NCBI GenBank assembly: GCA_963734535.1
Contig: CAVTHS010000006.1
Span: 192,001-256,000, forward strand
From: an uncultured Chloroflexia bacterium
GTDB taxonomy: Bacteria; Chloroflexota; Limnocylindria; Limnocylindrales; CSP1-4
Reading direction: 5' to 3'
Length of the DNA stretch: 64,000 bases
In this document: positions 9,092 to 11,054 of the stretch, piece by piece
Layout: every line of letters starts with the position of its first letter
How positions within the stretch are numbered: position 1 is the first letter of the stretch
Program-made: the position numbers and the translations under genes
The notes under the pieces: model-generated
What the model was told of the DNA's origin: nothing
The model's database searches: none
What the model saw: the letters and a program-made list of their open reading frames with translations, nothing else

Positions 9092-11054
9092 GTGACCTCC
9101 AAGGCCACCCGCGCACCCGAGACCGAGACGCCCCCGTTCGAGCCCTGGAGGCTTCCCCTCGATGCCGGGCTGGCCGCCCGGGCGCGCGCGACCGCGGCCA
9201 TGTACGGCGAGGCGGACGCGGACCCCGAGGCGTTCTGGGCCCGGCTTGCGCGCGAGCGGCTCACCTGGTCCACCCCGTTCGGCGTCACCTTGCAGTGGGA
9301 CCTCCCGTTCGCGAAGTGGTTCGTCGGCGGCGAGCTCAACGTCGCCTACAACTGCGTCGACCGGCACGTGGAGCGCGGCCTGGGCGACAAGGTGGCGTAC
9401 CACTGGATCGGGGAACCGGGTGACACCCGCACGCTCACCTACCGCGATCTCCAGGGCGAGGTCAACCGGGCTGCGAACGCGCTGATAGAGCTGGGCGTCC
9501 GCCGCGGCGACCGCGTCGCGATCTACCTGCCGATGGTGCCGGAGCTCCCGATCGCCATGCTCGCGTGTGCCAGGATCGGCGCCGCGCACGTGGTGGTCTT
9601 CAGCGGCTTCAGCGCCGAGGCGCTCGCCGACCGCATCAATGACGCGGGTGCGACGGTCCTCGTCACCGCCGACGGCGGCTGGCGGCGCGGCCGCAGGGTG
9701 GGCCTCAAACACCACGCCGACGAGGCCGTCGCGTCGACGCCATCGGTCCGCCACGTGGTCGTCGTCGGCCGCTTCGGCGACGGCGCCCACATGGTCGAAG
9801 GCCGCGACCACTGGTGGGACGAGCTCGTTGGCCGGCAGTCGGACCGCTGCGAACCGGTCCCGGTCGACTCCGAGCAGGTGCTCTTCGTCCTCTACACGTC
9901 TGGCACCACGGCCAGGCCGAAGGGGATCGTGCACACCTCGGCGGGCTACCTGCTGGGCTGCAGCCTCACCCACGCCACGGTCTTCGACCTCCGGCCGGGT
10001 GATGTCTATTGGTGTCCCGCAGACGTCGGGTCGATCACGGGCCACAGCTACGTCGTCTACGGCCCGCTCGCCAACGCCGCGACCGGGATCCTCTATGAAG
10101 GCGCGCCGGACGCACCGGGGTGGGATCGCTGGTGGCAGATCGTGGAGGAATACCGGGTCACGCTCCTGTACACCGCGCCGGCCGCGATCCGGGCCTTCAT
10201 GCGGCAGGGGGAGGCGCACCCGCGGCGGCACGACCTGGGCTCGATCCGGCTGCTGGGCACAGGCGGCGAGTCGATCACCCCGGAGGCATGGCGCTGGTAC
10301 CACGAGCACGTCGGCGGGGGCCGGGCCCCCATCGTGGACACGTGGTGGCAGACGGAAACCGGGAGCATCATGATCAGCCCGCTACCCGGCGTCACGGCCG
10401 CCAGGCCCGGCTCTGTCGCCCGGCCGCTGCCCGGGATCGGGGTGGAGATCGTGGATGGCTCGGGCAACCCCGTCGCGGATGGCGGCGGCGGATACCTGGT
10501 CCTGACGCGACCGTGGCCGTCGATGCTGCGTGGCATCCATGGAGACGAGGAGCGGTACCGGGCAGACGTACTGGAGCCGCTTCCCGGGGCGCTACCTGAC
10601 CGGTGACGGCGCAAAGCGCGACGAGAACGGTCACGTCTGGCTTCTCGGCCGCGTCGACGACGTCATCAACGTGGCCGGCCACCGGCTCTCGACGATCGAG
10701 GTCGAGACGGCGCTCGAGAGCCACCCGGCGGTCGCGGAAGCCGCCGTGGTTGGCAGGACGGATGACGTGGCGGGCCAGGCGGTCTTCGCCTTCGTCACGC
10801 TCGAGACTGGGCAGACGCCATCGGACGCGCTCGCGGTGCAGCTGCGCGAGCACGTTGCCTACGCCATCGGGCCCATGGCGCGCCCGACGTACCTGATCTT
10901 CACGCCGGACCTGCCCCGGACGAGGTCCGGCGCGATCATGCGCCGTCTCCTGCGCGAGATCGCGGAGGGCCGGTCGCCGGGCGACGCGAGCAGCCTGGCG
11001 GACGCCGGCGTCGTCGGTACGATCCGCGAGCAGGCCGGGCGGGCGGAGGACTGA
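9092..11054 (+). CDS. acs: Acetyl-CoA synthetase homolog, catalytic Lys replaced by Ala; indel near 10560
   Basis: [66 protein letters not shown] before GTG 9092; joins ORFs 8996..10606 and 10530..11054. Confidence 0.85.

Follow-up and report, generated by a model that had tools for sequence, protein, structure and literature searches.

The acs-like gene at positions 9092–11054 (+ strand) of the 64,000-nucleotide (nt) stretch analysed here (the window; contig CAVTHS010000006.1 of assembly GCA_963734535.1) encodes a homologue of acetyl-coenzyme A (CoA) synthetase (Acs) in which the catalytic, acetylatable lysine of the A10 motif is replaced by alanine. The replacement is shared by five other sequences, and a second, canonical acs gene is present in the same genome. 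From these comparisons it seems, on balance, probable that the protein derives from Acs, has been displaced in its function, no longer adenylates and is retained under relaxed purifying selection. Alignment coordinates refer to the whole window, and to the + strand unless stated otherwise.

The A10 lysine and accompanying residue changes

The codon map places the following departures from the canonical motifs:

10932..10934, + strand: GCG, alanine at the A10 catalytic, acetylatable lysine (S. enterica Acs K609)
10917..10919, + strand: CGG, arginine at the first A10 lysine (PKTRSGK to PRTRSGA)
10031..10036, + strand: TCG ATC, serine-isoleucine for the canonical tryptophan-valine of the A4 motif, beside the acyl pocket
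10262..10264, + strand: GGC, glycine for the canonical valine of the GSVGEP motif (the window reads GTGGESIT)

The GCG codon, the Trp to Ser exchange, the GTGGESIT variant and the kept GRVDD..VAGHR had been pointed out in an earlier reading of the letters alone (the sequence-only reading), and all are present as it described. Its premise, an A10 Lys required for adenylation and of minor importance for the second half-reaction, agrees with excerpts of PMC11255334, in which this Lys is described as essential for adenylation and its mutation in PrpE and luciferase as hardly affecting the second half-reaction.

We aligned 205 distinct canonical relatives with five Lys-less sequences (the window, L006, L026, P0004 and P0005). 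The catalytic A10 column holds Lys in 205/205 canonical and Ala in 5/5 Lys-less sequences, and the first Lys column of the motif holds Lys in 205/205 and Arg in 5/5, respectively. In the canonical set the A4 columns hold Trp in 205/205 and Val in 196/205 sequences, and the Val of GSVGEP is found in 205/205, with Gly in five Lys-less sequences and Ala in a further one, L250. The Lys-less sequences deviate at 16–27 of the 224 columns that are invariant in at least 204 of the 205 canonical relatives; 12 of these near-invariant columns are altered in all five, 10 of them to the same new residue.

Lys to Ala, Trp to Ser and Val to Gly/Ala are common to six sequences, namely the window, L006 (genome G023), L026, L250 (genome G062) and the database proteins P0004 and P0005. 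A search with the N-terminal piece returned 119 database proteins, among which P0004 (92% identical) and P0005 (82% identical to the window and 84% to P0004), both of 653 amino acids (aa), have Ala, while 116 match PKTRSGKIMRR and one failed the A10 pattern. One of the 19 related-genome loci (L006) and one of the 80 metagenome loci (L026) are Lys-less; among the matches listed in a motif scan of species genomes there is also L132, on the same contig as L250 and with 98.7% DNA identity to L006. In the five sequences besides the window's the frame is open and without a break, L250 being cut by the contig end.

That the codon is a sequencing or assembly error is practically excluded. The assembly is prone to one-base indels, but AAG to GCG takes two substitutions, and the same Ala stands in five sequences from other assemblies, by which this explanation is refuted. 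The sequence-only reading had taken the exchange as natural, and six sequences from independent assemblies bear it out.

The scan of genome contigs for A10 motifs without Lys gave at least 120 matches and is not a census. Gly occupies the A10 position in 87 of the 120 matches listed, nearly all of them an unrelated protein with the motif PxTRWGGIMR[RS]; this large Bacteroidota protein (L127–L244; an open frame of 1677 aa that fills the locus), which mostly reads PETRWGGIMRR or PETRWGGIMRS, mimics A10 at the DNA level. Also among the matches listed are full-length, otherwise canonical Acs with Gln, Gln, Gln and Glu at the A10 Lys (L150, L155, L159 and L160, in Thermoanaerobaculia, Pirellulales, Burkholderiales and Acidimicrobiaceae metagenome-assembled genomes (MAGs), respectively), each from one assembly and each due to a single-nucleotide change. 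No second acs was found in G058, which carries L150, at E ≤ 1e-50. These four cases may be errors, polymorphisms or real off-state alleles.

The window, L006, L026 and P0004 show no change at the checked motif columns (P-loop, TGD, GRVDD, DTWWQTE and GHR). At the acetate pocket T311 and W414 are kept, V310 is replaced by Ile, V386 by Gly and the neighbouring W309 by Ser, so that the residue set of acetate-CoA ligase is not matched. In S. enterica Acs the pocket residues are V310, T311, V386 and W414; the Val exchanged in GSVGEP has a pocket role, and the exchanged Trp lies beside the pocket.

Such changes might be expected of a still complete acyl-CoA ligase whose acyl pocket has become larger by remodelling and whose substrate is new, another residue or a group of the substrate having taken over the role of the Lys. 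The P-loop (TSGTT..PKG), needed for adenylation only, is indeed intact in all Lys-less members, the clade has the pocket-side exchanges (Trp to Ser, Val to Gly) in common, and purifying selection persists. We nevertheless consider this ligase unlikely, since the A10 Lys is present in 205/205 canonical sequences and is given as essential for adenylation in the excerpted source (PMC11255334), and at no changed column do the members of the Lys-less clade share a new basic residue. In addition, the pocket position varies within the clade (Gly in five, Ala in L250), erosion of core motifs goes on in P0005, and the genomic context is the same as that of canonical acs, so no new pathway partner is seen.

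Locus history, the second acs and selection

Over 6 kb surrounding the gene, the alignment identity is 93% with L006 and L026, and 82, 81 and 78% with the canonical-acs loci L032, L027 and L007, respectively, with shared synteny of a CCG/4Fe-4S gene, an MscS gene, a 218-aa gene and a ParA-like gene. The N-terminal piece of the window's gene (frame A, below) is 79–80% identical to the canonical orthologs, and P0004 is over its whole length 81% identical to P0006. Because the flanking 6 kb and the same neighbour genes align to canonical-acs loci, the Lys-less gene is, as judged by synteny, orthologous by position to the canonical acs of its congeners ("type A") and does not represent an old paralog clade.

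A further acs, type B, was identified in the source genome (G000) on contig C3 (L001; 948 bits); its Lys is present and its product is 64–65% identical to P0004. Directly upstream of it lies a gene of the histone-deacetylase family (PF00850, 260.9 bits; L001:39-1217), and this adjoining gene suggests that type B may be the copy under reversible Lys acetylation. In a survey of 42 genomes of the genus, 37 had an acs match at E ≤ 1e-100; types A and B occur together only in G000 and G023, both with a Lys-less A, and every other type A checked in the genus is canonical. G062 likewise holds a Lys-less A and a canonical B. Every not-found statement of this survey is limited by a MAG completeness of 54–95% (89.9% for the source genome). 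The sequence-only reading had proposed to look for a conserved clade with the SGA variant beside a canonical acs: the canonical gene is indeed present in the same genome, and the clade comprises six sequences, with a second acs in three genomes, but it does not form a distinct old paralog clade. As a separate observation, the G062 record is titled a Cellulomonas MAG; the Lys-less acs stands on a 2826-nt contig and the type B acs, 87% identical in protein to that of G000, on another (L247), and the bin is probably mis-binned or mislabelled.

In three genomes (G010, G053 and G045) only type B was found, and acs is missing between the MscS and 218-aa genes (82–87% DNA identity), with deletion end points that differ among the three. 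In the 3' acs remnant of G045 the first A10 Lys is Arg, the catalytic site is occupied by a residue other than Lys and an invariant Asp is Glu; in that of G053, Leu is Pro. These states are otherwise confined to the Lys-less clade. In a tree of the two flanking proteins, G045 and (G053, G010) group with the Lys-less clade with 96–99% support, their sister group being the canonical-A loci L027, L032 and L106. The remnant states and this tree indicate that the Lys was lost in an ancestor already holding type B, and that the gene afterwards underwent at least two deletions and persisted in one lineage.

Within the Lys-less clade the ratio of nonsynonymous to synonymous substitution rates (dN/dS) is 0.224 (confidence interval 0.16–0.31), 0.238, 0.132 and 0.117, with dS up to 0.2, and differs from 1 with Fisher p values from 3e-11 to 3e-19. 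Three pairs of canonical type A re-analysed with confidence intervals gave 0.057–0.093, most others lying at 0.06–0.09, and flanking genes of the same genome pairs gave 0.11–0.27. The Lys-less gene is under purifying selection, relaxed 2–3-fold in comparison with the canonical one. A dN/dS test proposed with the sequence-only reading thus returned selection (0.12–0.24), although at this weaker level. The values (p ≤ 3e-11), together with a sole frame break in the window's copy, are not those of a pseudogene. Three-taxon arithmetic gave an omega of about 0.34 for the Lys-less lineage, 0.09 for its sister and 0.06 for the outgroup; dN is 0.091 in the Lys-less lineage vs 0.019 in the sister, with similar dS, and the Lys-less protein has evolved about 4–5 times faster than the sister lineage. 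In the nucleotide tree the Lys-less clade sits on a long stem (0.127). A training set of 78 canonical Acs gave 236 invariant columns; at these, canonical pairs kept out of the set show 0–4 differences and Lys-less pairs 2–23.

Composition has moved as well. The G+C content at first codon positions (GC1) is 0.71–0.72 in Lys-less genes vs 0.64–0.68 in canonical ones, and at second positions (GC2) 0.525–0.53 vs 0.475–0.50. The residues Phe, Tyr, Met, Ile, Asn and Lys (FYMINK) number 82–85 vs 111–129, and at 55 fixed differences they were lost 20 times and gained 4 times. We read this shift, from the sequences compared, as a probable relaxation towards the G+C-rich equilibrium of the genome.

Lysines follow the same course, having fallen from about 17 to about 6 in the Lys-less lineage, mostly by Lys to Arg exchange. 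The 5–8 lysines of the Lys-less proteins, vs at least 12 (median 18) in the 205 canonical sequences, and the lack of any comparable Lys loss or composition change in the flanking proteins could point to an adaptive stripping of lysines, the acetylated one included, as an escape from lysine acylation or from lysine-targeted tagging. This we regard as very unlikely: the Lys loss belongs to the general G+C-ward shift (GC1, FYMINK), the final Lys content (about 0.9%) equals that of the neighbouring proteins, and loss of the catalytic Lys costs the very activity that an escape from regulation would protect. Adaptive lysine avoidance was accordingly rejected as the main cause. Escape from pupylation was also rejected, no Pup ligase (PF03136) having been found in the 89.9%-complete genome.

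Gene layout, neighbours and the frame break

In the window the acs-like gene is spread over two reading frames, with these parts and neighbours:

8074..9027, + strand: upstream neighbour, MscS-type channel (PF00924, 65 bits), syntenic in all relatives
9077..9081, + strand: GGAGG, Shine-Dalgarno-like site read from the sequence, 10 nt before the GTG start
9092-10606, + strand: frame A, 504 residues, then TGA at 10604-10606
9092..10561, + strand: frame A part of the acs-like gene (residues 1-490), GTG start, with the ACAS_N and AMP-binding domains
10530-11054, + strand: frame B, ending at the stop TGA 11052-11054
10560..10563, + strand: frame break, an additional base within TAC CGG G CAG in comparison with L006 and L026
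10563..11054, + strand: frame B part of the acs-like gene (residues 491-653 and stop), with the AMP-binding end and AMP-binding_C
11059..11715, + strand: downstream 218-aa gene, which remains in place where acs is deleted

The frame A part matches PF16177 (70.8 bits), PF00501 (302.1 bits) and NF001208 (698.9 bits, profile positions 25-487), and the frame B part matches PF13193 (84.7 bits) and NF001208 (215.9 bits, profile positions 487-645), which gives the domain order ACAS_N, AMP-binding, AMP-binding_C of acetate-CoA ligase. Against TIGR02188 (cut-off 724.95 bits) the two halves score separately, owing to the frame break, 661.3 and 203.9 bits, and the intact Lys-less members P0004 and P0005 exceed the cut-off with 883.4 and 839.3 bits. 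P0004 remained below the cut-offs of the PrpE profiles NF007815 and TIGR02316 (553.4 and 523.4 bits vs 955 and 827.4 bits, respectively). The best match in the PDB is 8rpk_A (665 bits), the protein is annotated in its sources as acetyl-CoA synthetase, and the Acs fold is not in doubt.

The stop TGA (11052-11054) is separated by 4 nt from the next ATG (11059). The sequence-only reading had placed a DUF6812-like gene there as a possible partner of the Acs homologue; the 4-nt gap is as it stated, but the 218-aa protein matches Pfam DUF6812 with 16.6 bits only (cut-off 27.1). A specific partnership is not borne out either, for the 218-aa gene also accompanies canonical acs and survives the deletion of acs. 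A scan for promoters and terminators over 7900-11900 gave 0 sites. On the minus strand, a 1160-aa open reading frame (ORF) at 5857-9339 is artefactual and due to read-through at high G+C content; the true gene within this span (about 5860-7998) encodes a protein with a CCG domain and a 4Fe-4S dicluster (PF02754, 113.9 bits).

L006 and L026, whose DNA is 93% identical, each lack one G at window 10560-10563, and dropping the extra base gives 653 codons, the length of the relatives. We also compared the gene with Logan read-derived contigs from four runs (X1–X4). In X1, which contains 0.83 of the sampled words, a 1172-nt contig of depth 13.4 covers 10040-11054 with 4 differing letters and one letter omitted at 10563, and the contigs of X2, X3 and X4 each omit one letter at 10560; X1 may be the source sample and hence not independent. 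Frame changes along the window were surveyed by tblastn against G053 and G010, as blastn at 82–87% identity gave paired compensating gaps. Eight further sites were identified, at about 1905, 13264, 29300, 29600, 29930, 36141, 42631 and 44970, at which the ORFs are continuous in both references, and about a dozen more are seen against one reference only; together they fit a pattern of one-base assembly errors in this 14-contig MAG. Because the extra base at 10560-10563 is missing from the relatives and from a near-identical read-derived contig, and at least 8 breaks of this kind occur elsewhere in the window, it is most likely an assembly artefact. The gene taken as full-length in the sequence-only reading is thus frameshifted (frames A and B) in this assembly, most likely artefactually. 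Two side observations were made. P0003, the cluster of the window's truncated 504-aa product, has 5 member sequences and 1 contig, and the canonical type A acs L116 (G014:C5:48274-50212) is split into two abutting pieces (query residues 8-229 and 229-653), which looks like a frame break in another assembly.

Were the frameshift genuine, it could mark the start of decay in a functionless relic heading for deletion. The gene is redundant with type B and has been deleted in G010, G053 and G045, and relaxed constraint, G+C drift and a broken window copy would be in line with decay. We find this improbable in view of the dN/dS values (0.12–0.24, p 3e-11 to 3e-19 vs neutrality) and of the five other sequences, P0005 included, that are free of frame breaks. 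The remnants, moreover, date the Lys-less state before the split from the deletion lineages, and therefore the frame has long been kept open; the extra base itself is absent from the 99.6% identical read-derived contig, in a window with at least 8 other frame breaks.

Proposed role and comparison with known systems

Taken together, these results lead us to favour a functionally displaced Acs derivative without adenylation activity. In a small sub-lineage with a second, canonical type B acs, the type A copy has lost the A10 Lys. Its product, we propose, would no longer make acyl-adenosine monophosphate (acyl-AMP) from adenosine triphosphate (ATP) at a useful rate, and acetate activation would be left to type B. 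The Lys-less protein may then have persisted as a weakly constrained Acs fold that still binds AMP or acyl-AMP and CoA, limited to the thioester-forming half-reaction or to a non-catalytic role. Excerpts of PMC10455477 name three CoA-contacting Arg residues and describe Trp414 as setting the acyl range; the Arg of the GHR motif (by offset, the middle one of the three) and Trp414 are retained in all five aligned members, and so are the P-loop, TGD and GRVDD.

Several points weigh against this proposal. Another residue may compensate for the missing Lys. The amino-acid changes, Lys to Ala (AAG to GCG) included, follow the G+C drift expected from simple relaxation, and constraint at formerly invariant positions is weakened. 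In P0005, core motifs are altered (Thr to Ala in DTWWQTE, TGDG to TGDA and GHR to GRR), the last two changes falling beside and not at the checked motif columns. Among the closest relatives the gene was lost by deletion on at least two occasions, and the role of the Lys-less protein would therefore be dispensable. The copy in this assembly is frameshifted; the X1 contig is 99.6%, not 100%, identical to the window and could come from another strain, and, as one of its 4 differences is unlisted, it does not directly confirm the GCG codon.

We also entertain, more tentatively, a naturally evolved ANL protein without adenylation that is maintained by selection, which seems possible from the sequence comparisons. 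It could be a dedicated thioester half-enzyme (acyl-AMP + CoA to acyl-CoA), with free or misformed acyl-AMP as substrate, or a pseudoenzyme derived from Acs, which would act as a sensor of AMP, acetyl-AMP or CoA or as a modulator of the canonical type B Acs and the associated deacetylase. In open-access papers and bioRxiv, we found no natural Lys-less Acs or comparable ANL pseudoenzyme, and no paper joining the term "pseudoenzyme" with Acs or acyl-CoA synthetase. Should a half-reaction or regulatory role prove true, the protein would be a new kind of Acs derivative, easily tested in vitro.

For a displaced derivative, the consequences would concern annotation first. Because the Lys-less protein passes the curated threshold of the acetate-CoA ligase equivalog, pipelines will assign two functional enzymes of acetate activation to these soil Chloroflexota, of which probably only one works; the Lys-less copy should not be annotated as acetate-activating. 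The locus may also serve as a natural experiment on the fate of an ANL enzyme after takeover by a paralog, deleted in some lineages and in one long kept without its Lys but with measurable constraint.

Among known systems, the Lys-less protein is closest to the AMP-forming acetate-CoA ligases (TIGR02188/NF001208; 8RPK, Chloroflexota AcsA; 1PG4/2P2F, S. enterica Acs), with which it shares the three Pfam domains, the locus, the P-loop and the GRVDD/GHR motifs. It differs from canonical Acs in having Ala at the A10 Lys, Arg at the first A10 Lys, Ser-Ile for the Trp-Val of A4 and Gly for the Val of GSVGEP, as well as a dN/dS 2–3 times higher. With A10-Lys mutants and acetylated ANL enzymes (PrpE, firefly luciferase, AcK549/AcK609 Acs) it has in common the absence of a free A10 Lys amine, and such forms are reported, in the excerpted text of PMC11255334, to lose adenylation and largely keep the thioester step. 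However, those cases are laboratory mutants or a reversible modification, whereas here a natural lineage is fixed for the loss, which is accompanied by pocket changes and relaxed constraint. L150, L155, L159 and L160 resemble it in the replacement of the A10 Lys in a full-length Acs, but theirs are single-nucleotide Lys to Gln/Glu changes in otherwise canonical motifs. As in pseudoenzymes that arise after displacement by a paralog, the catalytic residue is lost, the fold and ligand motifs are kept, an active copy is present in the genome and purifying selection is observed.

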